Shown here piece by piece: positions 19,489 through 53,448 of a stretch of 64,000 nucleotides of DNA. The notes under the pieces were generated by a model. That model was not told the origin of the DNA. It ran no database searches and saw only the letters and a program-made list of their open reading frames with translations. The stretch spans positions 69,764 through 133,763 of the forward strand of contig CALWEJ010000002.1 of assembly GCA_944377165.1 (NCBI GenBank), given 5' to 3'. Source of the DNA: an uncultured Clostridia bacterium (GTDB taxonomy: Bacteria; Bacillota; Clostridia; Christensenellales; UBA1242). Position numbers and translations under genes: made by a program. The stretch's first letter is position 1. Each line of letters opens with the position of its first letter.

Positions 19489-20613
19489 ATGAAATTAGAA
19501 ATAAAACAACAAGACATAATACCTTATGTTTATTTTGTTAGTAGCATGGCTCAGCAATCAAAATCTGGAATGTTTGGATCTTTAAGTTCAAAAAGCGATC
19601 TTGTAGGTGGAATTTTTGATAGATGGATAAATATTATTCCAGAAAGTATAGTGTTTAATCAATATTTCTTACCTGAAGCAGTAAAAAAATTAAATATGAA
19701 TAAAAAAGTAAGAGTTTTTTCTGATTTCTATATGTATGATCCAAAAGTTGTAGGTATTGCACCAGATGTAATTGGTTTGCAAATTGAAAACAAAATTGTT
19801 CCTTTTGTTAAATACGATGACACAAAAGAAGATACAAAGTTTTGGGTTCCTCAAACAGAATGTCCTCAAATAGAAGTTAAGTCTTTTTTTGGTAAAAAGT
19901 ATATGGTTAGTTTAAGAGATCAACATTATGGAGATAAGTTCCTAGTAATGGTTGGAGCAAACATTGATGTTGACTACTTGCTTTCTTTCTTTGATAAAAA
20001 TATATTTACTGAAAATGAAATAAGTAAATTGACGATGCCTAATGACTTTATTGAGTCTGATAATAAAGGCTTAATTTCTAAAACAAAGCAAGTTGAATTT
20101 AACAGATGTAGTTTGGGTAGTCTGGAGCTACTTTGTGTCACAAAAGCTTCTCAATTTAGAAATATGGCACTAAAACTTAATGCAGGAGAAATTCCAAGAT
20201 ATTTCGTTGATGTAACGCAAAGAAAAGTTAAAGTAAAAGAAAGTAATTACAGTCCAAACTCTTTATTGAGTGATTATTGTGATAAACAAGAAAGTGGACT
20301 ATACAGATTTAATGACAACTGGTATTCGTTATTTACAACGCCTAAGGAAAAAACATTAGACATTGAAATTGGAGGTCCTAATGCATTAAGAGTTATAAAA
20401 AAGACCACTAATTCTATAACCGTATTAGCCGAAAGCGATACCTTCGTTAATGACTACAACCTACAAAAAGGAAATCAATATAATATAAACTTTGGAACTT
20501 TTGGTTCAATTGCAGGTGAAGAATATTTCATTAATAAAGGATTATTAAAGTATTTGCCTAATATGGAAAGCAATCTAATCGAATCATTAAGTCAGATTAT
20601 AAGGAAAAACTAA
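19489..20613 (+). CDS. putative type II restriction endonuclease (or REase subunit) 1
   Basis: RBS AGGAGA. PD-(D/E)xK-like APDVIGLQ...PQIEVKSFF. First gene of a tightly packed R-R-M-M operon. No family recognised. Confidence 0.4.
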   Translation: MKLEIKQQDIIPYVYFVSSMAQQSKSGMFGSLSSKSDLVGGIFDRWINIIPESIVFNQYFLPEAVKKLNMNKKVRVFSDFYMYDPKVVGIAPDVIGLQIENKIVPFVKYDDTKEDTKFWVPQTECPQIEVKSFFGKKYMVSLRDQHYGDKFLVMVGANIDVDYLLSFFDKNIFTENEISKLTMPNDFIESDNKGLISKTKQVEFNRCSLGSLELLCVTKASQFRNMALKLNAGEIPRYFVDVTQRKVKVKESNYSPNSLLSDYCDKQESGLYRFNDNWYSLFTTPKEKTLDIEIGGPNALRVIKKTTNSITVLAESDTFVNDYNLQKGNQYNINFGTFGSIAGEEYFINKGLLKYLPNMESNLIESLSQIIRKN

Positions 20614-20626
20614 GGAGAATATACAA

Positions 20627-21229
20627 ATGAAAATATCAAGAGAGATTTTACATTTACCCGAAGGAGATAAAAGGGCTGATGTAACAATATTTGATCAGAG
20701 AGATAATGATGAATTGAAAAAAATCTATGATGGTTGGAGATTGTTATGTGATAACTTAAATAAACTAAATGCAAGATCAGTAAATCTCCCAGAAGGACTA
20801 TCTGAAATTGGTTTTGCAATGGCTAAAAATATGTGGAGATGTACCAGCTCAATAACTGGTGCTAACTCTTCTTTTGATTGTTATGATCCTAACGGTTCTA
20901 GAGGCAACAATAGAATACAAGTAAAAGCTTGTAGTGTTCTTCCAGATTTAACTAGTTTCGGACCTCACTCGCAATGGGATAGAATATTTTTTGTTGATTT
21001 TTATAGAGAAGGAAACTGGGATAGAACTTTTGATGTATACGAAATTGCTACAAGCGATATAGAAAACTTCCCTGTAAATGCAAACCAGACAGTTGCGGAT
21101 CAAAAAGCACAAGGAAGAAGACCTCGTTTCAGTATTTATTCTGGATTAATTGAAACTGGAAGATTTATATCTAAAGAAACCTATTGCATAACAGACAATG
21201 GTGTTAAATTAATTAATAAAACAAAATAA
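20627..21229 (+). CDS. putative small type II restriction endonuclease (or REase subunit) 2
   Basis: RBS AAGGAG. FDCYDP...NRIQVKACS...LTSFGP is a PD-(D/E/Q)xK-like pattern, reminiscent (from memory only) of small Bsp6I-like enzymes. Confidence 0.45.
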   Translation: MKISREILHLPEGDKRADVTIFDQRDNDELKKIYDGWRLLCDNLNKLNARSVNLPEGLSEIGFAMAKNMWRCTSSITGANSSFDCYDPNGSRGNNRIQVKACSVLPDLTSFGPHSQWDRIFFVDFYREGNWDRTFDVYEIATSDIENFPVNANQTVADQKAQGRRPRFSIYSGLIETGRFISKETYCITDNGVKLINKTK

Positions 21230-21289
21230 AAATTTCACTGGATATTCATTAGAATTTGTGATATTTTGTTTGCTAAAGGAGAAAATAAT

Positions 21290-22408
21290 ATGCAAAAATT
21301 TAAAGTTGGAAGCCTATTTGCAGGCGTCGGAGGAATATGTTTAGGATTTAAAAATGCAAAATTTGAAGATTATTCATATAGTCTTTCATGGGCAAACGAA
21401 ATTGATCAATACGCATGTGAAACATATAGAACAAATTTTGAGCATTCTGTATTAGAAGGAGATATTAATAAAATTCTCGATACCTCATTATGTACAGAAG
21501 ACGAAAAAGAAAGATATGAACAAATGCAAAATGAGATTTTATCAAAAGATGTTGATATTCTAACAGCAGGATTTCCTTGCCAGGCATTTAGTATAGCCGG
21601 AGAAAGAAAAGGGTTTGACGATGAAAGAGGAAACTTATTCTTAAGTATTGTAAAATTGGTTAACAAAATGAAACAAAAACCAAGAGTATTATTCTTAGAA
21701 AATGTAAAAAACCTATTATCTCATGATAAAGGGCAAACCTACAAAGTCATTAAAAGCGAAATAGAAAAACTAGGTTATCATATTAAAGAGAAAGTATTCA
21801 ACACAATGGAGATGTCCACTCTTCCACAAAATAGAGAAAGAATTTATATAATCTGTTTCAAAAACAAAGAAGATTATGATAAATTTGATTTCACAATTAT
21901 AGAAAAGAAATATAAGAAGAAATATACTTCAGAAGAACGATCTGAGCAAGTTTCAAATATCATAGATTATTCATTAAAGGCAGATAATAAATATTATTAT
22001 ACCGAGTCAAAATATCCTCATTACTTCAAGCATGAGATGGATGGCGAAGATTATGTTAATTTAAATGAGCAGATTACTGAAAGATATCAATTTTATCAAT
22101 TAAGACGTGGTCTTTATGTAAGAAAGAATAAAAGCAATGTATGTCCAACACTAACTGCAAATATGGGAACTGGTGGACATAATGTACCATTGATATACGA
22201 TGGATTTGGAATTAGAAAATTATTACCTGCTGAAACATTTAGATTGCAAGGATTCCCTGTTGGCACAGAATACAAACTTCCAATAAAATTCAAGGGGAAA
22301 AATTATCCCGACTCTATGTTATATAAACAAGCAGGAAATGCTGTATCAGTTCCTGTAATTCAATTATTAGCAACAGAAATACTAAAAGTATTCAAGGAAA
22401 ACAACTAG
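21290..22408 (+). CDS. DNA (cytosine-5)-methyltransferase 1
   Basis: ATG at 21290 after AAAGGAG. Motif I FAGVGG, IV GFPCQAFSIAG, VI ENVKNL, VIII QNRERIYII, X GNAVSVPV. Confidence 0.9.
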   Translation: MQKFKVGSLFAGVGGICLGFKNAKFEDYSYSLSWANEIDQYACETYRTNFEHSVLEGDINKILDTSLCTEDEKERYEQMQNEILSKDVDILTAGFPCQAFSIAGERKGFDDERGNLFLSIVKLVNKMKQKPRVLFLENVKNLLSHDKGQTYKVIKSEIEKLGYHIKEKVFNTMEMSTLPQNRERIYIICFKNKEDYDKFDFTIIEKKYKKKYTSEERSEQVSNIIDYSLKADNKYYYTESKYPHYFKHEMDGEDYVNLNEQITERYQFYQLRRGLYVRKNKSNVCPTLTANMGTGGHNVPLIYDGFGIRKLLPAETFRLQGFPVGTEYKLPIKFKGKNYPDSMLYKQAGNAVSVPVIQLLATEILKVFKENN

Positions 22409-23353
22409 ATGAAAGTTGCAAGTATGTTTGCGGGAATTGGTGGTATATGTTTAGGCTTTAAACAGGCTGGATTTGATATTGTTTGGGCAAATGAAGTTGA
22501 TAATGATGCATGCAAAACATATAGAAAAAATTTAGGCGATCACTATCTAATTGAAGACGATATTAGAAATATTGATCCTAAAACATTGCCAGATTTTGAT
22601 GTTCTAACCGCAGGTTTTCCTTGTCAACCATTCTCTATTGCTGGAAAGCAAAAAGGATTTAAAGATAAACGAGGAAATCTATTCTTTGAAATTGCTAAAA
22701 TAATAGATGTAAAAAGACCTAAGATTGTCTTTTTAGAAAATGTTAGAAATCTTGAAGAGCACGACAATGGTAAAACTTTTTTGGTTATATACAATACATT
22801 AGCACAGTTTGGTTACGGTGTAAGATATAAAGTCTTAAATGCTAAAGACTATGGAGTGCCACAAAACAGAGAAAGAATATTTATTATTGGTTTTTTAGAT
22901 GATTGGCAATGCAATAATTTCAAATATCCTGAGGCTATAAAATCGCCAGAGTCTATTTTTGACATAATAAGAACTTCGGACAAAAAACATCCATTTTATT
23001 ATTATGACGATAAAAGTCCATATTTTCAAATGCTAAGTAAATCTATTATTGATAAAAGCAAAATTTATAAATTAACTGACTATGGAGTAAGAAAAAGCAA
23101 AACTAGTATATGCCCCACTTTAACAGCAAATATGGGGACATTTCCAGATAGAGTCCCTATAATAAAAGATGATTTCGGCATAAGAAAACTAATGCCATCA
23201 GAATGTCTTTTACTTCAAGGCTTTCCAGACAATTTCCAGTTTCAGAAAAACATTTCAATAGAAAGTGCGTACAAGCAAGTTGGAAATTCTGTATGTGTAC
23301 CATTAATAAAATTTTTAGCAGAACAATTAAAAGTTATTATGGAGATTAAATAG
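22409..23353 (+). CDS. DNA (cytosine-5)-methyltransferase 2
   Basis: The ATG abuts the upstream stop (TAGATG). Motif I FAGIGG, IV GFPCQPFSIAG, VI ENVRNL, VIII QNRERIFIIGF, X GNSVCVPL. Confidence 0.9.
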   Translation: MKVASMFAGIGGICLGFKQAGFDIVWANEVDNDACKTYRKNLGDHYLIEDDIRNIDPKTLPDFDVLTAGFPCQPFSIAGKQKGFKDKRGNLFFEIAKIIDVKRPKIVFLENVRNLEEHDNGKTFLVIYNTLAQFGYGVRYKVLNAKDYGVPQNRERIFIIGFLDDWQCNNFKYPEAIKSPESIFDIIRTSDKKHPFYYYDDKSPYFQMLSKSIIDKSKIYKLTDYGVRKSKTSICPTLTANMGTFPDRVPIIKDDFGIRKLMPSECLLLQGFPDNFQFQKNISIESAYKQVGNSVCVPLIKFLAEQLKVIMEIK

Positions 23354-23686
23354 ATGAAAGCATTAATTATTAAAAAGCCTTGGATTGATTACATTTTAGA
23401 GGGTAAAAAAACATGGGAAATTCGTGGAAGTAATACTAATATCAGAGGTCAAATAGAGCTTATACAAAGCGGAAGTGGTTTGGTTGTAGGTTCTTGCGAG
23501 ATTATAGATTGTAAAGAATTGACTTTAGATGATTATAAAAACAATACTGATAAACACAACATTAAAAACGTTGAGGCTCTTCCCTACAAAAAGACATATG
23601 CTTGGGTTATGTTGAACGCAAAGAAATATGAAACAGCTAGAAAATATAAACATCCTAACGGTGCGATAATATGGGTAAATTTATAA
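23354..23686 (+). CDS. ASCH (PUA-like) domain protein
   Basis: 110 aa. IKKPWIDYILEGKKTWEIRG followed by beta-rich segments is typical of ASCH domains. The start abuts the MTase-2 stop (TAGATG), suggesting translational coupling. Confidence 0.55.
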   Translation: MKALIIKKPWIDYILEGKKTWEIRGSNTNIRGQIELIQSGSGLVVGSCEIIDCKELTLDDYKNNTDKHNIKNVEALPYKKTYAWVMLNAKKYETARKYKHPNGAIIWVNL

Positions 23687-24074
23687 GAACGGATAATATC
23701 TGCTCTTTTTTATAGTTTTTACCCTTTTATATACAAAACACCTGCGACACCTGCAACTCCTGCAATATAATCTTTAATAAAATAGCCTTACGATATGTTA
23801 TTTTAGTGAGTAAGTGTTTATATGTACTCACGTATTACAGGAGTCGCATATGGTTACATTAGAAATCCTCTAAAACAATTAAAAATTAATAAAAAGATTT
23901 TCTTTTTGCTAAATTGTGTCTCGATCTAAAGAAAACTTATAAAAAGGCACGAAGTGAAACAAAAGGGAACAAAATGAATACAAAAAGCGTGACCAACCCC
24001 GTATAATAGAAGTATAAAGAAAGAAATTGCCGATAAGAGAAGTTGTAAAAAACTTCTCTTTTTTTGTTGCAAAA

Positions 24075-24625
24075 TTTTTTCCGTCGTAAAAGATGTGTTG
24101 ACAGCGGGCTTTATAAACTATAAGAAAAAAACAAAAAAATTTCCCGTTGGTTCAAATGGTGAGCCAGCGGGAAATGTAAAATAACTTTATAAATTTTTAT
24201 GATCCACAAGATGTGTGTAACAACAAGTGTAAAATTTTATAAAAAATAAATCTCGTAGCACACAACGTGTGTGATGCGACTTTGTTACCATAATAAAGAA
24301 AATAATATTTCCCGCTTGACCAAGCGTTGGTAAAGCGAGCTTGATACAATTTTATAAAAAGATTTCCCGATAGGAAAAATGGTTTCCGAACGAAAGAATT
24401 AAAATAAAAAAAATTTATATTAGGAACAATGATTTCCGAGTTGAAAATGTATTATATGGCAAAGGAGATAAAAATAAAAAATTTTCCCCGATAGGACAAA
24501 TGGTGTCTTATCGAGATTGATAAAATCAAATAAAGTTATAGGTATTCCAATTATTGAAGCACCTTGCCAAATGGAATATAAACACTAAAACCAAAATTGG
24601 TTTTACCGATGGACTGCAGCCGTCG
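24075..24625 (+). repeat. array of about 10 imperfect hairpins with ~55-60-bp period and A/T-rich spacers
   Basis: Stems at 24081-24107, 24140-24174, 24253-24279, 24312-24325, 24368-24392, 24422-24437, 24489-24513, 24543-24578, 24587-24604 and 24607-24625. Recurrent ATTTCCCG and AAATGGT motifs. Confidence 0.7.
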
Positions 24626-24694
24626 TTAAAATATAGCCAAAGTTAAGACTTGATCAACCTTAATATAGGCACAAAATCTAATAAAGGAGATAAA

Positions 24695-25348
24695 ATGAGA
24701 AATTTCATATTTGAATTTGAACAAGATAAAGCATTAGAATTTGGCTTAAAATTAAACGAATTGTTATTGCTTGATTATATGTTGAAATTCTTCCATACAG
24801 ATCGAGTTAAAAGACAAAGAAAAGGAGAACGATTTTATTGTAGACTTACTTATAACAAAGTTCTAGGCGACCTACCTATCCTTAGAATAAAGGAAAGACA
24901 ATTAAGGAATATGATTATTGGTCTTGAAAAGAAAGGAATAGTTGAAAGGTTCTCTGAACTGAAAAATCAAATGTATCTATATGTGGACTTTAATAAGTTA
25001 TTTGGCAATGATTTGCCTAACGATACAAATGGACAAGCAAGTTCTTGCCCAGATGTCGGAAGCAAAGTTCCTACAATAGATAATTATGATAATAATAAAA
25101 TAAAAATAAAAATTAATAACGCGCGTGTACGAGAGTTAGATTTAGAAATTTTCAATAAAGTACTGCATGAGTTATTAAAAGAAAGAGTAAGTAAAATATC
25201 TTACGATTTATTCTTTTATGTTACCAAAGCAATTCAATTAGAAGATGATGGAATTATATTCAGGGTCAAATGGAAAGAACGTATTGAACAGGCTTTTATG
25301 GATAAATTCACATCAATAGTTGAAGAAGCTGTCTCAAAATTTATTTAA
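24695..25348 (+). CDS. winged-HTH, replication-initiator/DnaD-like protein (tentative)
   Basis: ATG at 24695 after AAAGGAG (the track TTG at 24650 is less likely). wHTH-like LTYNKVLGDLPILRIKERQLRNMIIGLEKKGIVERF. Repeat arrays lie on both sides. Confidence 0.35.
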   Translation: MRNFIFEFEQDKALEFGLKLNELLLLDYMLKFFHTDRVKRQRKGERFYCRLTYNKVLGDLPILRIKERQLRNMIIGLEKKGIVERFSELKNQMYLYVDFNKLFGNDLPNDTNGQASSCPDVGSKVPTIDNYDNNKIKIKINNARVRELDLEIFNKVLHELLKERVSKISYDLFFYVTKAIQLEDDGIIFRVKWKERIEQAFMDKFTSIVEEAVSKFI

Positions 25349-27498: not shown

Positions 27499-27532
27499 GA
27501 TTCCTAAGAGATGAAACTCTTAGGAGTCTTTT
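27499..27532. terminator. bidirectional hairpin between int and the STAND-like gene
   Basis: GATTCCTAAGAG (27499-27510) / CTCTTAGGAGTC (27517-27528), flanked by A- and T-runs. The right arm contains CTTAGGAG, identical to the island core repeat. Confidence 0.65.
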
Positions 27533-30500
27533 AATGTAGATTAAATTCGTCTAATAAAACTGCCGCTTCTGGAATTCTTAAATTTATTAAGATTTCTAAC
27601 ATTTTTTTGTAAGAATCTATTAACTTTTGGTTCTTTTTTATTAATCTATTTGTCTTTAAATATGCTGTGGTAATAATTTCAACAACTATAAATCTAAATT
27701 CAAAAACTAATTGTTTTAGCAAAACTGCATTTTTATTAAATAAACTTTCAATTATTACACTTAAGGAAATTAAAATATTTGGTACAAGTTTATCAATTTT
27801 AAACTGCTTAATTGTTATTAATACATCTTTAAAACAGAACTCTCCAAATTTTATAAATTGATTATTAATAAAATCAATATTTTCTTCTGTAAATTCTGTT
27901 TTACACTTTTCAAAACTAGACAACCATTTTGGCATTCCAAATATTAATGATTTGTACATACTCTGAGGAGTATTATTATTTCCAAGTATGTAGTCTTCTA
28001 TTTTTAAAATTATGTTTTGATATAACTTTCTTTCAGTTTGGTTATTATAGGAGTCAAAATAATTTAAAGATAATTGAGAAAAAATTTCATTGCAAAAATC
28101 AACAGCCTCATGATCAAAATTTACATTATTTAAATTATTAAACAACATATCAATAACAAAAGAATGTGCTTTTGCATCTATTATTTGTGTTTTTAAAAAA
28201 TCTTTCAAGTCACATACATTATAATATGAAACTACGTCTAACCAACCATGGTTGCTTTTGAGCATGTTGTTAAATAAACAATTTAAACATTGATTAACAA
28301 TCTCTCCTTGCTCATTATTTAATAAAGAAATATTACAGTGCACAATGCTTAACAAAAGAGAAATATCATAATTATTAATGTTAAAATCATTTAAAACGAG
28401 AGCTTCTTCTTTTATTAAATATTTTGTAATTATTTCGTCTTCTTTGCTTTCAAATTTATTTGCACCGTTTTTTTCTATTATATAATCAACTCTAGAAAGA
28501 TGAGGTGTTTCATTAGGAACAAAATCAATGAATTCATTTTGGGTATCTTGATAATATTTTAAGTTATAATACTGATGATTCATTTCATTTTCTGATAACT
28601 TAATAATGGTATTATATAAAGCTTTAGATAATGTTAAATTTTTTCCCAAATATAAATTTAGGATTCTTTTAAATTGAGAAATAGTGCCATCTTGACCATC
28701 AAAAATTATTATATTTAACATTAATAATTTGATTCTTTTTTTCATTTTTGCTGAAATATTTTCGTTCACTTGAGAAAATAAAATTATAATAGGATGCAAA
28801 TCATTTATGATAAATCCTTTATTGTTTAAAAACCCTTCAAATCCAGAAAGTAAGTAATTACAATATTTTTCACGATGATAACTGTCCAATTCTTTATTGG
28901 TTAATATTGATCCTAAAACAACAATTATTGCATCGTCAAATTGTCTCACAATACATTTATTTGAATTTCTTAAAATATTATTTATTAACTTTAAGTCTTT
29001 ATCAAAATCAAAGGTTTGTTCTTTAATTTTCATTAAGCATGCTGAAATTTCTTTATTAATCAAAACATCATATTTGTTAATCTTTTTTGAATGATTTTGA
29101 ATTTCTTTTGCCTCACCAGTTATATTTGCTTCTAAAACTTCTATTCCTGGTGCAAAATTTCTTTTCTTATAAGTTCTGACATCCATTTTCTGAATTTGTA
29201 ATAAATTATTTGGATCTCCATTCTGATTTTTTTTATACAAATAATCTATAATTTTATAGCATTTTTTAACTATAGAATCATCAGATAATAGCTGGCAATT
29301 AGCCATATAATCAACTAACAAAGATGTGTTTTTGTGTTCATATCTATCTTTTATATAAGGAAGTCCTATTTTTAAACACATTTGCTTTATTAAGATTTCT
29401 TTTGTAGGATTTTTTGCCACTAAACTATATCTGGTATAATCCAATAAAACAAAATCAATATTTGTTACCAAATCCAAAGCGTAGCCTGGTAATTCTTTTG
29501 AACACGATAGTCCTATTTCTTCTATGATAGAAAGCAGAAAGATGTTGTTTGTTTTTTCATAAATGGTATTTTTTATAAAATTTGCAAAATTTCTTCTCTT
29601 GTTTATATCAATATTTATGTTTTTAATTTGATCAATACAATAATCTTTCAAAATATACAACAAATCACCAACAAGCATTGGATTGTTATAAGTTTGTGAT
29701 GTTGCCATCCACATTTCTGGCAGTCCCCAATATGTTTTTGTTTTATCAGAATCTACAAATACCACCTCATATTCTAATAAAGGATTCTCTAAGTCAGAGT
29801 ATCTTGAAACGATTTTGTTGACAATCTCTATTGTCCAGTTCAAGCCTTTAATAAAGTTAAAATTAAACATATTATTAAAGAAATTATTATTGTATAAAGA
29901 TTCATTAGAACTATGTTCATATGATTCTGCATTGTGGCTTAGATTATAACTTTTGATTAGTCCTTTCTTTTCTTCTCTGCAAAATACTGGTATTTTTGAA
30001 TAGTCAACAAATTTATCTTCAAACCAATAAAGTTCTAACAATTCACATAATGGTTCTAATAAATATATTGACAACATAAAATTATCCGCTTTGATTGTAT
30101 TTTCTATAATCGTTTTTGCAAAGTCTGATAAATCCTCATCCGGTTCTTTATACCATTTATTCAGTTTCTTCCAAAATAAAATTATCCAATCCTTTGCGAC
30201 TTTTGAATATTTATAGAGAATATTTAAATGATCTAATATTAAAGATTTTAAATGATAATCATTTGATTTTATAAAATCGTCAATTTCAGCTTCTAAATAA
30301 TATTCTAATATACTGCAAGCATCATTTAAATAGCAATCTGAGATTTCATTTTGAATTGTTAGATGATTGCACATCATTAATAGATCTTCTTTGTATTGAG
30401 TATCTTTATAAATCTCTTTTTCATTGCAAATATGTATAATAGCAGAACGTGCTTGTCCGCTTGGGGATAATAACATATGATTGGTAAATCCATTTAGTTT

Positions 30501-32264
30501 TGTTATGTTAAAAGCATATAAGTTAGTCAGTTCTATTAATTCTTTTAAAATTCCACATTCTATAATATCTTCAGAATAGTTTATAATTAAACTAAGACAA
30601 TAATCAGACTTTATAATTCCTATCAATGTCTCTTTTTTTAATGCATTCGGAGTGGTATCAGAAAAAATAATATTATGTAAAATATTGTAGCCAGAGGCTT
30701 GGTTAAAAAGTTTGTTTGAAATCCATATTTGGTATCTTCGATATGCACAGTTTCCATATTGAAGAATAGCGTTGTAGAAATTTAAATAATTGTTTTTGCA
30801 ATCATCAAAAGACTTATCAAAAAGATGTTCAAAACATATATCTTCATAAATATCATATTTTAATCTTATCTTATCATCATCAATGCAACAAAGCACATCT
30901 TCTGAAATTAGAGCATTTATAATGTCACTATCATAGTCTTCTTTATGGACACCAATTAAAAATCGCATTGATCTAGTAGTAGTTATTTTAACGACAGTGG
31001 ATAATATTTCATTGTATTTTAAATCATATTTTTTGCAAACATCTTTTAGACAAATAACATTTTCCCAAATAAACTTTCTTAAAACATGTTCATTCTCAAA
31101 ATTTGATGAGATATTACATTTAGTTATTATTAAATTAAGGTAAAATGGAGATTTGAAAAACTCGCTATATTCAAAGTTTGATGACAACTTAGAAATAATC
31201 GGGTATTTATTTTTTATTTTTGAAAATTCATCTGTATCAATATTTCCAATACTATAATAATCCATGTATTTTGACAATGTAAGCAATATTCCGTTATCAG
31301 TATTTCTGCAAGATGTTATTATATTAATATTTTTAAAATCATTTGTTAACCAATAAAGTTCTTCCAATAATTCTAATTTTGAGTTTTTATCAGATATAGA
31401 CTCTATAGAATCTATAAAAAAAATAATTTTTTTGCTTTTTGTATATTTAATTAAATCCTTAATATTAATATCCCATATATTATTCAAATGGTTTGCTTGC
31501 AAAAAACTTTCGGCTCTTGCATATAATAAAACATTTTCATTTTCAACTAGATTTTTGCAAAGAGCCGATTTACCACAACCAGCTGGTCCTATTATGCAGA
31601 TATTGTTTTTGTTTAAAGCTTTAATATTTTCTATATCTTTAGTTCTGTCTATATGATATTCTCCGTTTATAGTATCCACTATTTTAGGAAGATAAAAATT
31701 TTTACTACGATCAGATATATGTTTAAGCTTCTCTTGTGTTCTTTCGATTTTCTCTGTCTCATCATGTAAAAGATTGTATAAAGAAGTTTTAAACAATCTA
31801 TCGTTTTTTGCTCTTTCAATTATTTTTGTTATTGTTATTAGATTTTTAGATTTTCTAAACGATATATTTCCAATTTTATTTTTACCTATATAATCTTTTA
31901 TTTTTTCTTCATTTGGTGTTAAAGCAAAAAATATTATTTCAGGAATATCTTTGTATTTGTTCGATTTTGAGTCTCTAATCTTTATAAGAGTATTGTGTAT
32001 TTTTTCATTTAAATCAGACTGAGAAGTAACTTGTACATATAAATTAGAATCTTTCGAAATTAAGTCTATATATGGAAATGTAAATGTTCCAGCATTTAAA
32101 TTCTCAAATTCTACGCCATACCATAATTTACAAATCTCTTTTGCAAACAACTCATATAATACCGCATTATTAAACAACCCAGCTTTGTTTGCTGTTTTTA
32201 TTTTTGCAACATATGAAGATAAATATTCAATAATATAATCAATTTCTCTCTCTGCTTTTGTCAT
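27531..32264 (-). CDS. giant P-loop NTPase, STAND/Avs-like architecture (N-terminal module, NTPase, ~1200-aa helical C-terminal region)
   Basis: ATG at 32264 after GGGAGA (the track TTG at 32282 lies in the leader). Walker A IIGPAGCGKS (31566-31589), Walker B-like KIIFFIDSIES. N-terminal FPYIDLISKDSNLYVQVTSQ module. Long Leu/Ile/Asn-rich helical remainder. Confidence 0.65.
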   Translation of the reverse strand: MTKAEREIDYIIEYLSSYVAKIKTANKAGLFNNAVLYELFAKEICKLWYGVEFENLNAGTFTFPYIDLISKDSNLYVQVTSQSDLNEKIHNTLIKIRDSKSNKYKDIPEIIFFALTPNEEKIKDYIGKNKIGNISFRKSKNLITITKIIERAKNDRLFKTSLYNLLHDETEKIERTQEKLKHISDRSKNFYLPKIVDTINGEYHIDRTKDIENIKALNKNNICIIGPAGCGKSALCKNLVENENVLLYARAESFLQANHLNNIWDINIKDLIKYTKSKKIIFFIDSIESISDKNSKLELLEELYWLTNDFKNINIITSCRNTDNGILLTLSKYMDYYSIGNIDTDEFSKIKNKYPIISKLSSNFEYSEFFKSPFYLNLIITKCNISSNFENEHVLRKFIWENVICLKDVCKKYDLKYNEILSTVVKITTTRSMRFLIGVHKEDYDSDIINALISEDVLCCIDDDKIRLKYDIYEDICFEHLFDKSFDDCKNNYLNFYNAILQYGNCAYRRYQIWISNKLFNQASGYNILHNIIFSDTTPNALKKETLIGIIKSDYCLSLIINYSEDIIECGILKELIELTNLYAFNITKLNGFTNHMLLSPSGQARSAIIHICNEKEIYKDTQYKEDLLMMCNHLTIQNEISDCYLNDACSILEYYLEAEIDDFIKSNDYHLKSLILDHLNILYKYSKVAKDWIILFWKKLNKWYKEPDEDLSDFAKTIIENTIKADNFMLSIYLLEPLCELLELYWFEDKFVDYSKIPVFCREEKKGLIKSYNLSHNAESYEHSSNESLYNNNFFNNMFNFNFIKGLNWTIEIVNKIVSRYSDLENPLLEYEVVFVDSDKTKTYWGLPEMWMATSQTYNNPMLVGDLLYILKDYCIDQIKNINIDINKRRNFANFIKNTIYEKTNNIFLLSIIEEIGLSCSKELPGYALDLVTNIDFVLLDYTRYSLVAKNPTKEILIKQMCLKIGLPYIKDRYEHKNTSLLVDYMANCQLLSDDSIVKKCYKIIDYLYKKNQNGDPNNLLQIQKMDVRTYKKRNFAPGIEVLEANITGEAKEIQNHSKKINKYDVLINKEISACLMKIKEQTFDFDKDLKLINNILRNSNKCIVRQFDDAIIVVLGSILTNKELDSYHREKYCNYLLSGFEGFLNNKGFIINDLHPIIILFSQVNENISAKMKKRIKLLMLNIIIFDGQDGTISQFKRILNLYLGKNLTLSKALYNTIIKLSENEMNHQYYNLKYYQDTQNEFIDFVPNETPHLSRVDYIIEKNGANKFESKEDEIITKYLIKEEALVLNDFNINNYDISLLLSIVHCNISLLNNEQGEIVNQCLNCLFNNMLKSNHGWLDVVSYYNVCDLKDFLKTQIIDAKAHSFVIDMLFNNLNNVNFDHEAVDFCNEIFSQLSLNYFDSYNNQTERKLYQNIILKIEDYILGNNNTPQSMYKSLIFGMPKWLSSFEKCKTEFTEENIDFINNQFIKFGEFCFKDVLITIKQFKIDKLVPNILISLSVIIESLFNKNAVLLKQLVFEFRFIVVEIITTAYLKTNRLIKKNQKLIDSYKKMLEILINLRIPEAAVLLDEFNLH

Positions 32265-32284
32265 ATAATTCTCCCATTGCAATC

Positions 32285-32353: not shown

Positions 32354-32430
<77 letters not shown>

Positions 32431-51400: not shown

Positions 51401-53448
51401 ACGGATTAAGGAAAATCACGCGTGAAGATAACCCTATCTACGACGAAAATGGAAATGTAGTAGGTTATAACTATAAGTGGATTGTAAGTGATAATGGCTA
51501 TGGCGAGAGCTCTAACCCTATTCTAATTTACGATTTAAATTCGTTTGAAACGTATTTCATACAGTCTAATATGGGTGCATATTTTAGATTTGTTTCAGAC
51601 ATTGACTTTAGCTCTAAGAGCGCTAATCCTACAACTAGCAATTTGACTTTCTCAGGGAATATTCAAGGTAATAATATGCGAATAGACGGCCTTATGATTT
51701 ATTCATTAGAAAGTCTTGAATCTATTGGTCTATTTGGGAAAATCGAGAGTGCGGATAGTTCGGCATATAACTCAATTAGAAATCTAAAAGTTAATGCTTC
51801 TTCTATTTTAGCTAGTAGAACGCAGTCGGTAGGTGTTTTGGCAGGTATTATTCAAGATTATCGCTTGTACAATATTGAATTAAGTGCAGACGATGTTATT
51901 GTTGGTTCAAATGCGGTCGGCGGTTTAGCAGGTATCGTTAGAGGTAGATTTGATATTCAAAATATTTCAAGCTCGGTAAGTGTAAATAGTGTACGTGCTT
52001 CAACTCAATATCAATATTCGATTTATGAGTCAATTAATAATCGTTCAGAAATATCTTCTAACCTTGATACAATTTATTACGCAGGAAGTATTGCAGGAAT
52101 TTTGGACGGATATGATAGTAGCAATTATGATATCACGAAAGCAAGAGATTTAATTGAAGCTAATTATTTCGTTGCGGACGACTTGTACGTTAGCGGAAAT
52201 ATTACAGCAATTGGTGACACAGTAGGTGCTATGTTCGGATTGGTTGGCGAGAGAGTAAAAGTTTCTTCTGCTAGTGTAGAACTTTCTGGCGGAATACTAT
52301 ACGGATATCAATATAGCGCTGGACTTGTGGGTGAAAATCGTGGTTGGATTGAATCAGCAACTGTTAGTAGCGAGACATTGAATTTATTTGAATATTCTAA
52401 TAATGTTAATGCCGGGATTGTAGGATTTAACCTTGGTGGAATTATATTAAATAGTAGTGCGGATATAGTTATTACAAAAGATAATACTTCTTCAACTGCA
52501 GGTGGAATTGTCGGTAGAAACCTTAATGGTTATATCAATTCAAGTGCGTTTAGTGGAGAAATCATAAGTTTCTATGCTGGTGGTATAATGGGTGCTGATT
52601 ATACTTACGAGACGTTCATTAATCGTACTAGCGGTTCGGGAGCTATTGATAGAAATAATCTAAATGTATTGTTGGAAAATAAAGTTGAATATACATCTAA
52701 TGGCATAGAGCTTAATCAATTCAGCGACTTGTCTATTTCAAAGGATAGCCTTGAATATTGGTTAGATAATACACGCGAGTTCTATTCATATCAAGTCAAT
52801 CAAACAGATTTTGATTCTGCTATAAATTATAGTAAAGTCTTAGGTCTATTCGTTGGCTTAAGAACTAACGGAATAGATTATTCAGGCTTAACTTATGGAC
52901 TTTCCGATAATGGATTTATAATTTATCCTACTGATTCAAACATTACTAATTCGGAAGTCGGATTAGTGCAAAATGCAAACTTGATAGGAAATGTACAATA
53001 TGACCTTCCTTATGCTAACATTTTCACGTCAATTACAGTTGATTATACTTACATTACTTACATAGTAGGTTCTAGTGTTAGCGCGTTTGATTCGTGGACT
53101 AGAAATAGTTATGACGATGAAATGATTGTGTTTACAAATTCAACTGATATTAGCTATCCATTCGGAAAAGTTGAAGGATTTTATGCTCGTGGTGATAGGA
53201 ATAATGTCTATTTACGAAATGTTTTAGCTGAGTTAACTTTTGACTATTCATATTTGTTAGATAACTTTATAATAGATGAGGAAAATCCTTTAACTGTTAA
53301 AGTCAATTCAACTGAATTAAGTGAAATAGAAGATAATATAATTAATCTTAAATTTAGTAGTAATGTATGTACTTTAGAGTTCAATGGCACGTCAGCTACT
53401 ACGAACTTAGCATTAAAAATTACAATAAGAATAAGTAAAGTAGATTGA
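42451..53448 (+). CDS. giant (3665 aa) surface lipoprotein with Ig-like N-terminal region and more than 20 GLUG-type beta-helix repeats
   Basis: Signal peptide plus lipobox (VFSAC-G). Repeated motifs include FGGLVGENYG, LGGVIGENE, VGGVIGRNLG, YIGGLVGNNNS, AVGGLAGIVRG and YSAGLVGENRG. Acidic low-complexity insert near 45190-45340. Confidence 0.8.
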   Translation: MRKFRGVVLIVIAFISCFVFSACGKDYSSLKMSFYSSDGESISNINLILDENNTATIGVKFEGIETDDIGSISARTEPANLADTPIGNLEGNTYFITISANMVSSDNARLIVHHDSSGKEASIPLSISKRSTNNGISLINENYFLPIKGEEYTAIIDPYDIISIDGSEDVYFALSDNSNMGALTSITESINGEELITGFTVPNTIQTGFKVDLIPVLVLNQDTNRHLTDYTFSLNFVRQFNESEIVIDTDQLHEPYINNEPIVLIAGDTDSNLSPDGESYNYNNVHVELKLMADELIDLTNVDGVNFYNYYTVKATYDDSLPLRVEYSANKVIFTATDYFADETDVKLELIPKGSGQVESIVKSFKIKCAVKPNNIEIAMQDEIIDTDSTLSLFDYYPNSLGAKFDFSVMPEIAYSDLSNIRLQVTPQLLNIRVNFGNDNVNVIYTDDSFTTLNTNTSVTHNDGTVTQFGDNMYLLQFYKGSTPLKFYYDAGLNKFVSEEITENDVVFVKYVETDSIVDRFGTLMFDVCNYYSGDLDYLQNIKTLSKTLTFNRRDGVSDLTINAGYISIDGNHDQTFYQNAEGSIEVKQLYLDRNQGIDNPNATTYFIYVKDVLGEQGNNLTSATFDVKVVGGGDNPLKVKQYAVNDGNAKDIVGQTEIKFNYTSELIYNDILLVFDSNTDIGDYEIYIYFPNYDGGENGFVKIDCKVYQSLTEKDIEYVIEQNDTAFKNFLGFNFDGTKQYLFDEYQSDYIVASGQELNFAIDLDEVYEVESYLFTADYTGGGNYTANEFISIKNNGANDSTAKLSFVKGSFVDGIQYVTLHSFITVENYSNIVTIDGTNTIELALTFFIYEPISLEDINTNITIDGQTLKASSETRYMNECLGAYYKNLSVAELSIALSDESLWNYVLKTNSNESTDDNNEDVNTEIPTENPTETSGDNTSENENAEGDTGSSENNNQNPIYVTWSSETDSDLVEILSQDYNSIELKFNNNSSYTAYSVVIYATFVQFNQKPFTLIFTINVEVPVLTEHVQILSELEEIVEGSTDYSLNLKAGEVYTLTAKNIAGNREVTSPEVYMVVVDRFGNVSTNNVTVDNENLTLTVNDNLLGGNDLKLIVFAKDALSENLEHFASGYNDPKTFILNGWDATTEGSFYEAYIVIDLILSNGTISHPYMIYNADDFWEINYSDAMKSANYKLVANINLNNTTYLGPRVIDGFSGSISTYVDDKGTEYMYTISGLTLDENNRNLFTNFLGSISNINFNVLYNYNLSLSKESEKLGIFATNEGSIINTTVTFTTNSSANLVGSDSTINFGGLVGENYGEIKYTSNIIIGASGSITLTGNANVNFGGLVGLNSATISGYSGEESALNANSTDTTTDSNNKNIIFGIFIGNDGAIANVNIISNMTNNNSSLGGVIGENEIDASISNAFVTGNIDATHNNVGGVIGRNLGVKHSVLVALDGTTNNIIDLTVQDNNVNYSVYKVTSIVKIASTGDNIGGVTGIDTNGIYSEVKYQIMSDSARSIVGGNNVAGIIGNATNSYLEYSSVYSYRWDYASCSAIEGEEDISGYNYVSGLIGIANDGVTNVSSGAKYAVSSVNKSNVNAYISGEGNTSGIISVNISSSVRSPLIIYSSFIGKLTGANTQNRLVVSNIDNTSLLSNQVFSVNGIFENSDTFNWTIKNPSELNSDIWGYNAGINGGYIYVMKDGEPIFDRVPSDITATPSDNVNSFEDNVIYLEYYNFMNDEDSSITIRENTYSILDILNFTISPSDLDNVRINVASSNSNVVMISNSNILVRGIGQATITFSAQLNEDINTSVTIYVGLPLGNIFNISRSSVDSSLSINNTDLRIAKDNGEQFYIISSGEEDYLGNTYSYETNKNVNLHIEASTPASYNIDGSSEDGHTNINYYLNISGVNLTYKEEKDTYDIWEVDLSYDTLFSIFVLNKLEGGKFAFSVTPYIMVAEQYRLTFDKNVVVFDLYTRSGPTSVSLNYNSLILYPNDETTLSAYISTDVELDETDFRDMLNLTFDNVVVNTGDYDKYIDILSLGSLNENTNQQIVTFSVKFNKDDSISETITHSLDLSIDIENGNSAKVEFTLIPQRINTLDVKNYLVNEKGELTASDIIKSGSDEEPNTYGIIIINVAPINAYYDYLEISDITGRELIVFTQVDAEHNRVGVDIPSRDGNGIILNKMSDKTIYVKTLISRNYSSIMHTIQVKAYVFNDGANDTNKLDDICVSPSTINVTARMMPNITMNYIRPDGSIEREQTTKHLAIGTVNDFLIYATNADSAIPTFSYSLSKAGAVDLDFNDYFIELSSNTNFYQLTPRQNANFRDLLGYTLTITATATATNENGDFDTTSKSLSFTFVNFVVHNVSISHSVNNGSTLYGNYGVDIDFYFYFDSNDISFYGNDGNNIYYDSTITSKEQGTIYYINEILKNLNSSLSLFNFNEFISENEDSTIEIDTTNSILTLKNNGIEVLTIKNNRYTYTINVTGNEEIDSMNIIFFLDVNEFNWSFASEDAEKQSNNTQLKYDLEYGLSFTNALTNHETNLIVTAEEFLNMESGTGYTLGQDITLENYTPLDLNLTYFDGNGHTITIKNFSTFADANIMAGLFEQVYEGMRVENLEVHYSEGDKTGFGTYKRTSTSFDVTYYDITKNSEVDYESVIFGGITPSNSGIITNCKVSGIMALTAPTVEAKVSGLNVAFYIGGLVGNNNSTGYITNSVSELQIFAKANIGGFVYSNAGKIVSSAFDANTTTTVAGTISQNKHGLIYAYNRTNSYTNVIQVSGFAVNNSGEISMSYVESGVTYATLGASASNNNPIGNISAKDVSAGFVYSNSGLVYDSYVLMEQVGDNSNNIFSGFVNSNSASIENCYTMINNGNKSSAIINMFAPYGTTGITNSYEIKIPVVGYTNGIEGLNEIEFNNRFDVNQYKTFTFGDNTSAVWTISGTNTPKLVSTIEKVEFNGTEKPDGNLVNIDGVDYYKNYYGLRKITREDNPIYDENGNVVGYNYKWIVSDNGYGESSNPILIYDLNSFETYFIQSNMGAYFRFVSDIDFSSKSANPTTSNLTFSGNIQGNNMRIDGLMIYSLESLESIGLFGKIESADSSAYNSIRNLKVNASSILASRTQSVGVLAGIIQDYRLYNIELSADDVIVGSNAVGGLAGIVRGRFDIQNISSSVSVNSVRASTQYQYSIYESINNRSEISSNLDTIYYAGSIAGILDGYDSSNYDITKARDLIEANYFVADDLYVSGNITAIGDTVGAMFGLVGERVKVSSASVELSGGILYGYQYSAGLVGENRGWIESATVSSETLNLFEYSNNVNAGIVGFNLGGIILNSSADIVITKDNTSSTAGGIVGRNLNGYINSSAFSGEIISFYAGGIMGADYTYETFINRTSGSGAIDRNNLNVLLENKVEYTSNGIELNQFSDLSISKDSLEYWLDNTREFYSYQVNQTDFDSAINYSKVLGLFVGLRTNGIDYSGLTYGLSDNGFIIYPTDSNITNSEVGLVQNANLIGNVQYDLPYANIFTSITVDYTYITYIVGSSVSAFDSWTRNSYDDEMIVFTNSTDISYPFGKVEGFYARGDRNNVYLRNVLAELTFDYSYLLDNFIIDEENPLTVKVNSTELSEIEDNIINLKFSSNVCTLEFNGTSATTNLALKITIRISKVD

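Follow-up and report, generated by a model that had tools for sequence, protein, structure and literature searches.

Bacterial promoters can be arranged in tandem clusters, as is known from phage early regions and from the rRNA promoters P1/P2, and promoters of the extended -10 class do not require a -35 element. For an engineered E. coli promoter, which Horwitz and Loeb are said to have described in Science in 1988, it is reported that a palindrome extrudes under superhelical stress and that transcription is thereby shut off. The rep regions of theta plasmids combine an inverted-repeat operator over the rep promoter with direct-repeat iterons (P1 incC/incA, pPS10, pSC101), and at origins of transfer (oriT) a conserved nic motif generally lies a short, fixed distance behind an inverted repeat. 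At the RNA level, tandem hairpins are known from the multi-hairpin sponge RNAs CsrB and RsmZ, and repeats from ToxI, a type III antitoxin repeat RNA. Here, we analyze an array of about 11 hairpin-bearing repeat units (24072-24632, start-to-start spacing 51-70 nt) located upstream of a rep-like gene in a 64-kb stretch of DNA from an uncultured Clostridia bacterium (contig CALWEJ010000002.1; the whole stretch is referred to as the window). The array belongs to a conserved unit family that is found in front of the genes for maintenance and mobility on several unrelated integrative islands of uncultured gut Clostridia. We tentatively read it as a bank of tandem extended -10 promoters without -35 element that would drive the core operon of the island, each gated by a structure-dependent palindrome; we regard this as close to, but not quite, an even call.

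A set of 28 units can be aligned without gaps, and the model alignment gives a consensus of 50 columns. Hereby, columns 1-8 (AAATATTT) are A/T-rich and are followed by CCCG in columns 9-12 (5' flank TTTCCCG), a variable arm in columns 13-18 and the complementary variable arm in columns 28-33. Columns 19-27 read C-A-(AATGG)-T-G, i.e. an AATGG loop closed by a C-G and an A-T pair, and the stem comprises 10-12 bp. CG(G) in columns 34-35 is followed, after about 4 nt, by TGn (columns 40-42) and the hexamer TAAAAT (columns 43-48). Within this alignment 72% of the cells are paired compared to 54% after shuffling, and the covariation score amounts to 0.496 compared to 0.175 for shuffled data, with none of 500 shuffles scoring as high and slid-partner controls yielding 0.09-0.19. 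A position weight matrix scan extended the collection to 172 distinct units with 79 different 5' arm hexamers. Here, the six variable stem positions are paired in 81% of cases, compared to 44 ± 1.5% after exchange of the 3' arms among the units. Because arm pairing and covariation lie far above both the shuffled and the arm-swap controls, the hairpin is selected as a structure, and the loop and the base of the stem as sequence. Discrete unit types recur in all three island contexts described below, in differing order, e.g. CGCTTGACCAAATGGTGGTAAAGCG. The conserved loop and TTTCCCG flank point to a specific reader, which may be a protein or an RNA. As a separate observation, the ATG of the loop and the TAA or TAG of the -10 hexamer lie in frame, 7 codons apart, in about 85% of the units, with no ribosome-binding site (RBS); as one in three such frames is met by chance, this is probably a coincidence.

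The 3' part of the unit looks like a sigma-A extended -10 promoter together with its start site. Among the 172 units the hexamer positions are conserved to 90% (T-12), 98% (A-11), 76% (A at the third position), 94% (A), 81% (A) and 96% (T-7), which is the order of conservation of sigma-70-type -10 elements. The dinucleotide TG at -15/-14 (columns 40-41) is present in 93 units (54%), and in up to 39 others (up to 23%) the G lies one base nearer to the hexamer (TTG directly before TAAAAT). Exactly 7 nt past the hexamer 159 of the 172 units (92%) carry a purine, compared to 51% after TAAAAT elsewhere in the same loci, and G is found at -1 in a single unit; start sites of the sigma-70 type prefer a pyrimidine at -1 and a purine at +1. 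Since this purine is kept in 92 of the 102 units that are oddly spaced or last in their array, it is tied to the hexamer and not to the following unit. No -35 hexamer TTGACA was found 16-18 bp upstream within the units, whose columns 19-25 read CAAATGG, and a promoter scan reports none of them. The host promoters are canonical (TTGACA-17-TATAAT before tRNA-Asn, TTGACA-17-TGGTAAATG before tRNA-Met), so that the missing -35 element is a real feature of the units. With T-12 placed at column 43, the AATGG loop falls at -34 to -30 and the palindrome at approximately -45 to -19, i.e. at the place of the -35 element. The A/T-rich columns 1-8 correspond to -54 to -47, roughly the zone that upstream (UP) elements occupy. 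The distance between stem and -10 element is free of gaps, whereas the stretch separating the -10 element from the following stem measures anything between 44 and over 100 nt.

Relatives of the rep-like protein were located in metagenome-assembled genomes and metagenome contigs, and arrays of this kind lie in their upstream regions. Metagenomes were separately scanned for two adjacent consensus units, which yielded 17 loci (all loci carry numbers with the prefix L). A covariance model trained on the 28 units and run by cmsearch gives 67 + 124 matches in 32 sources (the window and 31 loci), exclusively on the gene-sense strand and in one cluster per source. The 124 matches stem from the 17 scanned loci, each of which holds one co-oriented array of 2-14 units. 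Across loci the copy number varies between 0 and 15, and L004, with 14-15 units, presents a cleaner array than the window.

In all contexts the array sits just upstream of the first core gene and in the same orientation. Three island types can be distinguished. In type A, to which the window belongs, the array is followed by the rep promoter hairpins, the rep-like gene, xis and the gene of a 463-aa tyrosine integrase. In type B, the order is array, Shine-Dalgarno (SD) sequence with a start-stop mini open reading frame (ORF; AAGGAGGTGnTGAAATGTAA), a ribbon-helix-helix (RHH)-like protein, a MobL relaxase (PF18555, E 4e-24), an HTH_17 excisionase and finally a tyrosine integrase other than that of type A. 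Type C islands carry the array, an RHH-like protein of 156 aa and, further downstream, a serine recombinase, and are devoid of a relaxase. Units were also found ahead of a tyrosine integrase gene. An intrinsic terminator precedes the array in every type A, B and C locus whose upstream region was read; the first stem-loop directly follows this terminator, and behind the last promoter there is none. Within about 10-15 nt after the last unit, types B and C show a strong SD sequence. These arrays end in AAGGAGGTGnTGAAATGTAA, a perfect Shine-Dalgarno sequence with a start codon and then a stop codon before the first real gene (L021, L022, L023, L025, L027-L029, L031-L033, L035).

The units are independent of the rep-like gene. 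Only 4 of the 17 scanned loci encode a rep-like homologue, and at least 10 of them carry units upstream of other genes without one. Conversely, L015 and L016, whose rep-like proteins are 85% and 73% identical to that of the window, contain no units but retain both the hairpin of the rep promoter and the terminator module further upstream, and the array is likewise absent from the more distant rep-like homologues L005 and L007. An all-against-all BLASTP comparison of the ORFs of type A with those of types B and C returned only distant integrases and spurious ORFs inside the arrays. A shared element-encoded regulator was thus rejected as a candidate, and an element-encoded sequence-specific binder is unlikely. 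The hosts are uncultured Clostridia, one of them Candidatus Onthoplasma (Christensenellales). Neither the region nor two related arrays had a BLASTN match among annotated plasmids and phages. In IMG/VR, a single-unit query gave one chance match, which the covariance model rejected, and a query with two adjacent units gave none; the array is therefore not a phage feature. With Rfam 15 at gathering threshold only the three tRNAs of the window were recovered; the best permissive match in the region is LhrC with 24.9 bits against a threshold of 110, and a permissive search of the L004 array found nothing.

In the window, the gap between the terminator and the ATG of the rep-like gene is non-coding, its sole ORF comprising 50 aa on the minus strand. 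Folded as plus-strand RNA, positions 24075-24650 reach -138.9 kcal/mol compared to -100.8 ± 5.7 kcal/mol for dinucleotide shuffles (z = -6.66; none of 100 shuffles as good), and for the minus strand z amounts to -4.44. The covariance model recognizes seven units, all on the plus strand within 24072-24528 (starts listed: 24072, 24135, 24244, 24303, 24358, 24479), and none in the rest of the 64-kb window. The total of about 11 is reached with the decayed units at 24186, 24409 and 24536 and two terminal hairpins (24586-24607 and 24607-24625). Folding the units singly as single-stranded DNA and comparing them with shuffles identified stable hairpins at 24135 (z -6.4), 24244 (-2.9), 24303 (-3.4) and 24479 (-2.7) and in the terminal pair (24584-24634, -3.0), whereas the units at 24072, 24186, 24358, 24409 and 24536 are indistinguishable from shuffles. 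The array is hence partly decayed, with about six sound hairpins (four in the array and the two terminal ones) and about five relics, most of which retain the -10-like hexamer. The individual features are listed in Table 1. The terminator in front would shield the array from transcription entering upstream.

The initial annotation, made from the sequence of the window, had described ten hairpins with a period of 55-60 bp. Location and spacing agree with our data, but about half of the units are relics, and one of its examples (TATTCCAATT...AAATGGAATA) folds no better than shuffles. Its description of each unit as an A/T-rich, -10-like element with an imperfect hairpin is borne out by the consensus, as is the non-coding nature of the region, and the shared motifs ATTTCCCG and AAATGGT, also recovered by repeat finding as divergent direct repeats, represent the family consensus. 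It had excluded clustered regularly interspaced short palindromic repeats (CRISPR), and rightly so: the repeats are 62-75% identical to a reference copy, spacer-like unique segments are missing, and Tandem Repeats Finder reports no array in the region, because the copies are too divergent. A 13-nt identity between the array and the T-arm of tRNA-Met (24145-24157 = 800-812, also 991-1003) is real, but its link to the tRNA is attributable to chance. Matches of 13 nt between array and the rest of the window number 44, compared to a mean of 7 for shuffled arrays, and an equally good one lies at 51901; being this common, they deprive the T-arm match of weight. Covariance analysis over homologous islands, which had been suggested as a check, confirmed that the structure is conserved, and the Rfam search suggested alongside returned no family at gathering threshold in the region. 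Of the roles that had been offered, small structured RNAs each with its own promoter came closest, in that the -10-like element shows all the statistical hallmarks of a sigma-A extended -10 promoter with a start site.

Table 1. Features of the repeat array and of the adjoining rep-like gene (positions in the window)
Feature	Position	Strand	Evidence and remarks
Intrinsic terminator AAGAGAAGTT-GTAAAA-AACTTCTCTT + T-run	24035-24066	+	terminator scan; directly 5' of array
Unit 0, decayed stem TTCCGTCGT...GACAGCGGG	24072-24121	+	cmsearch 33.8 bits, E 0.0012; -10-like TAAACT 24114-24119
Unit 1, 16-bp hairpin ATTTCCCGTTGGTTCA-AATGG-TGAGCCAGCGGGAAAT (24139-24175)	24135-24184	+	cmsearch 58.4 bits; DNA fold -13.5 kcal/mol, z -6.4; inverted repeat
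Unit 1 promoter signals, -10 TAAAAT	24177-24182	+	sequence; predicted start 24189
Unit 2, relic, stem lost	24186-24235	+	read from sequence; no cmsearch match; TAAAAT retained 24230-24235; predicted start ~24242
Unit 3, hairpin CTCGTAGCACACA-ACG-TGTGTGATGCGA	24244-24293	+	cmsearch 42.5 bits; z -2.9; decayed -10 TACCAT 24286-24291; orthologous unit type in 11 loci
Unit 4, hairpin CGCTTGACCAAGCGTTGGTAAAGCG	24303-24352	+	cmsearch 50.1 bits; z -3.4; TTGA then -10 TACAAT 24345-24350; type common to type B and C arrays
Unit 5, weakened stem CCGATAGGAA-AAATG-GTTTCCGAACG	24358-24407	+	cmsearch 54.7 bits; DNA fold not significant; -10 TAAAAT 24400-24405; predicted start ~24412
Unit 6, relic TTAGGAACAATGATTTCCGAG	24409-24458	+	direct-repeat family; fold not significant
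Decayed copy of rep RBS and start codon AAAGGAGATAAAAATAAAAAATT	24461-24483	+	repeat pairing with 24683-24705; intact RBS and mini-ORF at this place in L002, L004, L018 arrays
Unit 7, hairpin CGATAGGACA-AATGG-TGTCTTATCG	24479-24528	+	cmsearch 59.9 bits (best in window); z -2.7; TTGA then -10 TAAAAT 24521-24526; predicted start ~24533
Unit 8, relic TATTCCAATT...AAATGGAATA	24536-24585	+	fold z -0.64; no cmsearch match
Rep-like promoter region: hairpins AAAACCAA-AATT-TTGGTTTT (24586-24607) and CGATGG-ACTGCAG-CCGTCG (24607-24625)	24586-24639	+	fold -8.0 kcal/mol, z -3.0
Promoter of the rep-like gene, -10 TAAAAT	24627-24632	+	sequence; predicted start A24639
Rep-like 5' leader hairpin AAGTTAAG-ACTTGATCAAC-CTTAAT	24640-24664	+	arms covary, TGATCA loop conserved across 13 type A loci
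Rep-like gene, 217 aa from ATG	24695-25348	+	SD AAAGGAG 24683-24689

From these data we infer active promoters and a repressive action of the stem-loop on the DNA itself, from which relaxation, replication or transfer would release the promoters. Hereby, each unit would contribute one sigma-A-type promoter, and all of them would fire toward the core genes (in the window the rep-like gene, xis and int). Either the palindrome would extrude into a hairpin or cruciform, or its folded form would be bound by a host factor, and the folded palindrome would occupy the place of sigma region 4 and of the alpha contacts. In the integrated, supercoiled state the core genes would be quiet, and they would become active once the DNA has relaxed or has just been replicated or transferred, with multiple units adding strength and cooperativity. 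With regard to the level at which the stem-loop acts, mismatches in the 10-bp stem core are informative: G-T occurs 89 times and A-C 67 times (p = 0.09), and because the two are about equally frequent, both strands seem to be constrained about equally, as for a duplex palindrome or cruciform. Together with the gap-free spacing between stem-loop and -10 element and with the order in which the arrays start and end, this favors a DNA-level unit consisting of the stem-loop and the -10 element behind it.

Several observations weigh against gated promoters. Promoter activity is deduced from sequence statistics, and arms of 10-12 bp with mismatches represent the lower limit for cruciform extrusion in vivo. 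Conservation of the AATGG loop and of the TTTCCCG flank on the 5' side is strong and asymmetric, which a model in which any cruciform will do leaves unexplained. About half of the units in the window are decayed, and the array is dispensable, given that two type A islands (L015, L016) lack it. Moreover, the plus strand folds better than the minus strand (z -6.7 vs -4.4) and G-U is slightly more frequent than A-C, both of which lean toward RNA. Finally, a hairpin with conserved loop and covarying arms lies in the transcribed rep leader, suggesting that RNA-level selection operates in this region.

Three further candidates were tried and rejected. A -35 element formed by cruciform extrusion was considered, and the composite sequence yields no TTGACA-like hexamer. 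By-eye comparison of the unit consensus with the sites of alternative sigma factors (sigma-54, H, E/K, B) and with LexA, CodY, cre and Spo0A boxes showed that none of them fits. The 5' flank TATTTCCCG equals one half-site of what we take to be the 14-bp Noc-binding palindrome (ATTTCCCGGGAAAT). The 3' half is, however, not conserved, and the window contains no full site with two or fewer mismatches, so that a Noc/ParB site is an unsupported lead.

The strongest alternative, which we consider possible but unlikely, accepts the promoters and assigns the stem-loops a function as RNA, either as short hairpin RNAs, with each promoter transcribing the hairpin of the next unit, or as a long multi-hairpin leader of the operon. 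Conserved AAUGG loops would then bind or titrate a host RNA-binding protein, for which CsrB-type RNAs provide the model, or would pair with a complementary loop. Such a function would be in line with the strong covariation of the arms around a conserved, asymmetric loop, with the location of all units on the sense strand, where a predicted start precedes every stem but the first by about 8-12 nt, and with the better fold of the plus strand. It is likewise compatible with the comparable covarying hairpin, with its conserved TGATCA loop, in the transcribed rep leader. The excess of G-U over A-C (89 vs 67) also points in this direction, but with a ratio of 1.3 (p = 0.09) it stays far below what is expected for a selected RNA helix. 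Discrete small RNAs would, moreover, need processing, since U-tract terminators are missing after the hairpins: the 3' flank consensus reads RRATTGnTAAAAT, and the terminator scan of the region yields just the one at 24035. On the minus strand, a good T-run is found at unit 1 only. The hairpin is coupled without gaps to the -10 element downstream and not to the promoter upstream, and the first hairpin of each array stands directly behind the terminator without any array promoter before it. The loop also lacks the GGA motif of CsrA sites, and no Rfam family matches. A bolder variant, quite improbable in our view, regards each unit as a self-contained gene for a hairpin RNA of about 50 nt with its own promoter. 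An array would then provide a library of 5-15 RNAs with a common AAUGG loop and a few stem types, common to unrelated islands and acting in trans, e.g. as decoys or specificity tags for a factor of the host or of a helper element. Almost as novel would be a natural bank of promoters that are gated by the formation of a cruciform or hairpin and would thereby sense DNA topology or the arrival of the element in a new cell.

Another possibility, to which we give as little credence as to the RNA library, is a function in the transfer of single-stranded DNA. Here, the units would be oriT-like or single-strand-origin-like sites: a relaxase or other HUH enzyme, or the priming machinery, would recognize the hairpin, and a conserved motif in single-stranded form would lie 5-7 nt beyond the stem on its 3' side. 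With such an array the island could be mobilized in cis or in trans by MobL-type relaxases, and variable stems could suit different helper relaxases. The hairpin with a motif at fixed distance resembles the general succession of inverted repeat and nic site, but the 3' motif fits a -10 element position by position, and a nic site does not predict the purine 7 nt downstream. Type B arrays lie directly upstream of the RHH gene and the MobL relaxase gene, which is the usual place of an oriT (position according to PMC5313138). The long-tailed type B loci, however, have other candidate oriT-like repeats between array and RHH gene, and one mapped MobL oriT, that of pLS20, features a GC-rich nic site, different repeats and nicking of the template strand (PMC5313138), which the units do not resemble. 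The window island has no relaxase and would need an oriT for mobilization in trans; on the other hand, the array is also found in the relaxase-free island with a serine recombinase and is absent from some islands. Relaxase-mediated recombination between sites could produce both the variation in copy number (0-15) and the shuffling of unit types between arrays, yet up to 15 nic sites in direct repeat would self-delete on transfer. An oriT is thus less well supported than promoters.

That the array is functionless debris, i.e. decaying tandem duplications of the rep promoter region, appears very unlikely. The decay of about half of the window units, the decayed copy of the rep RBS and start codon within the array and the highly variable, sometimes zero, copy number would be compatible with it. 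Debris does not account for 81% pairing at variable stem positions over 79 different arm sequences, for -10 positions and a start-site purine kept across islands with unrelated proteins, or for discrete unit types conserved between island families. Least credible of all are iterons or a replication origin to which the rep-like winged-helix protein would bind to start replication or repress its own gene, and with them the origin or single-strand initiation region proposed by the initial annotation: in spite of A/T-rich flanks and an array directly upstream of a gene whose product weakly resembles replisome organizers, RepA_N or DnaD-type initiators in fold, Rep-specific iterons are ruled out because units occur without rep-like gene (they precede RHH and MobL genes, an RHH-like gene with serine recombinase and a tyrosine integrase gene) and rep-like loci occur without units (L015, L016, L005, L007), and arms with 79 hexamers in 172 units would not be tolerable to a sequence-specific duplex binder.

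The rep-like gene itself belongs to a small family of 43 homologous clusters, and no Pfam model matches its product. An AlphaFold (AF2) model with a predicted local distance difference test score (pLDDT) of 75.7 shows a winged helix at the N-terminus, which a disordered linker spanning residues 106-132 joins to an alpha/beta domain at the C-terminus. Fold matches in the PDB are MarR/ArsR-type winged-helix proteins and, weakly, RepA_N initiators, and those in a viral library carry the labels replisome organizer, replication initiator and DnaD (E ~1e-3). Judged from this model, the label rep-like is reasonable but unproven. The hairpin region of the rep promoter is present in all type A loci, including those without array, and is absent from types B and C. 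Its arms covary between loci, e.g. CAAAGG/CTTTTG in L003 and CGAGA/TCTCG in L009. The leader hairpin downstream of the start site is probably a separate regulatory RNA or operator element.

Upstream of the array, two further elements were noted. At 23955-24066, three GAAnACAAAA repeats and a -10 element TATAAT (24002-24007) precede a transcription unit of about 52 nt, which ends at the strong intrinsic terminator (24035-24066); it may represent a small transcription unit or an attenuator. This element is present in the type A loci that were read (the window, L002, L009, L015, L016), in three tandem copies in the array-less L016. At 23737-23850, three direct copies of ACCTGC(R)AC and an inverted copy (TATTACAGGAGTCGCA) surround an AT-rich center. 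At the same place, relatives show the same architecture with unrelated sequence, i.e. CCGTCAT/CTGTCAT flanked by ACGCGCGCG (L003, L009, L016, L017), GGTGGCAC (L015, L017) or GTGATAC/GTGACAC (L002, L018), and the block differs even between islands whose rep-like proteins are 94% identical. The block may serve as a centromere-like site, as an att arm site or as an operator.

The core module is flanked by cargo that, judging by its predicted products, is defence-related. On one side (19489-23686), the window carries a 374-aa ORF without Pfam match, a Bsp6I-type restriction enzyme, two 5-methylcytosine (m5C) methyltransferase-like ORFs (assigned by sequence only) and an ASCH-domain protein, and on the other (27531-32282) a SMEK-domain protein of 1583 aa that weakly matches a P-loop ATPase. 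In sister islands the same position is taken by different defence genes, namely PRTase-CE with a reverse transcriptase, type I restriction-modification systems and a Shedu-type SduA_C protein (L009 2307-4794; L011 1-5303; L015 7514-8614), and the core module may act as a carrier of exchangeable defence genes. No att repeats of tRNA-Arg (32354-32430) of at least 13 nt were found that would mark the ends of the island. At the other mobile region of the window, tRNA-Met (752-828) is followed by two further copies of its 3' part (988-1012 and 1177-1190), which look like att-type remnants of tandem integrations.

Should the array indeed consist of working stem-loop-gated promoters, it would constitute a natural, modular control region built from repeats and common to several unrelated mobile islands, and would show how such islands silence and switch on their genes for excision, replication and mobilization. 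The islands concerned carry restriction-modification genes, reverse transcriptase beside PRTase-CE, and TIR-domain, Shedu-type (SduA_C) and NACHT/SMEK-type genes. With about 50 bp per unit and natural compensatory variants at hand, the array would offer a compact system for studying structure-dependent promoter control. In addition, a mis-annotation that is easily made is corrected, as repeats ahead of a rep-like gene are not necessarily iterons.

Compared to the known systems, the units share with CsrB and RsmZ the tandem hairpins with a common loop and differing stems, and with ToxI the position of a repeat array just upstream of a protein gene. Unlike in these RNAs, there is no GGA in the loop, the repeats are not near-identical, promoter signals lie in each repeat, and the downstream gene is DNA-binding and differs with the island. 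As in theta plasmid operator and iteron regions, repeats stand ahead of a winged-helix initiator-like gene and palindromes overlap a promoter; the units are, however, not tied to the rep-like gene, their arms vary, and each repeat of about 50 bp has its own promoter. With MobL oriT regions such as that of pLS20 (PMC5313138), type B arrays have in common the position upstream of genes for an RHH auxiliary protein and a relaxase, inverted repeats and, likely, phased A-tracts. In contrast to the oriT of pLS20, to whose description (PMC5313138) they bear no sequence resemblance, they consist of many tandem copies instead of one nic region and are also found in relaxase-free islands.

The cruciform-gated promoter is matched more closely, in that the palindrome of the unit lies within the footprint of RNA polymerase, would prevent the enzyme from binding when folded, and has AT-rich flanks and a short loop. 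That promoter is synthetic and single-copy, whereas the units have arms of just 10-12 bp and a conserved loop and 5' flank, and extrusion is putative here. The closest likeness is to sigma-70/sigma-A extended -10 promoters and to tandem promoter clusters: the units have TGnTAnAAT with nearly invariant T-12, A-11 and T-7, a pyrimidine at -1 and a purine at +1, 7 nt past the hexamer, an A/T-rich upstream part and no need of a -35 element, and they form series of promoters facing one operon. The units differ from these in their number of 5-15 copies with a period of about 56 bp, in the covarying palindrome that is fused to every copy at fixed distance in place of the -35 element, and in that the module is common to unrelated mobile islands. 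Keyword searches of the literature yielded no account of arrays of this kind. Tandem promoters are known, as are palindromes that overlap a promoter; an array of 5-15 copies of a promoter with a covarying hairpin, common to unrelated islands, is to our knowledge new.

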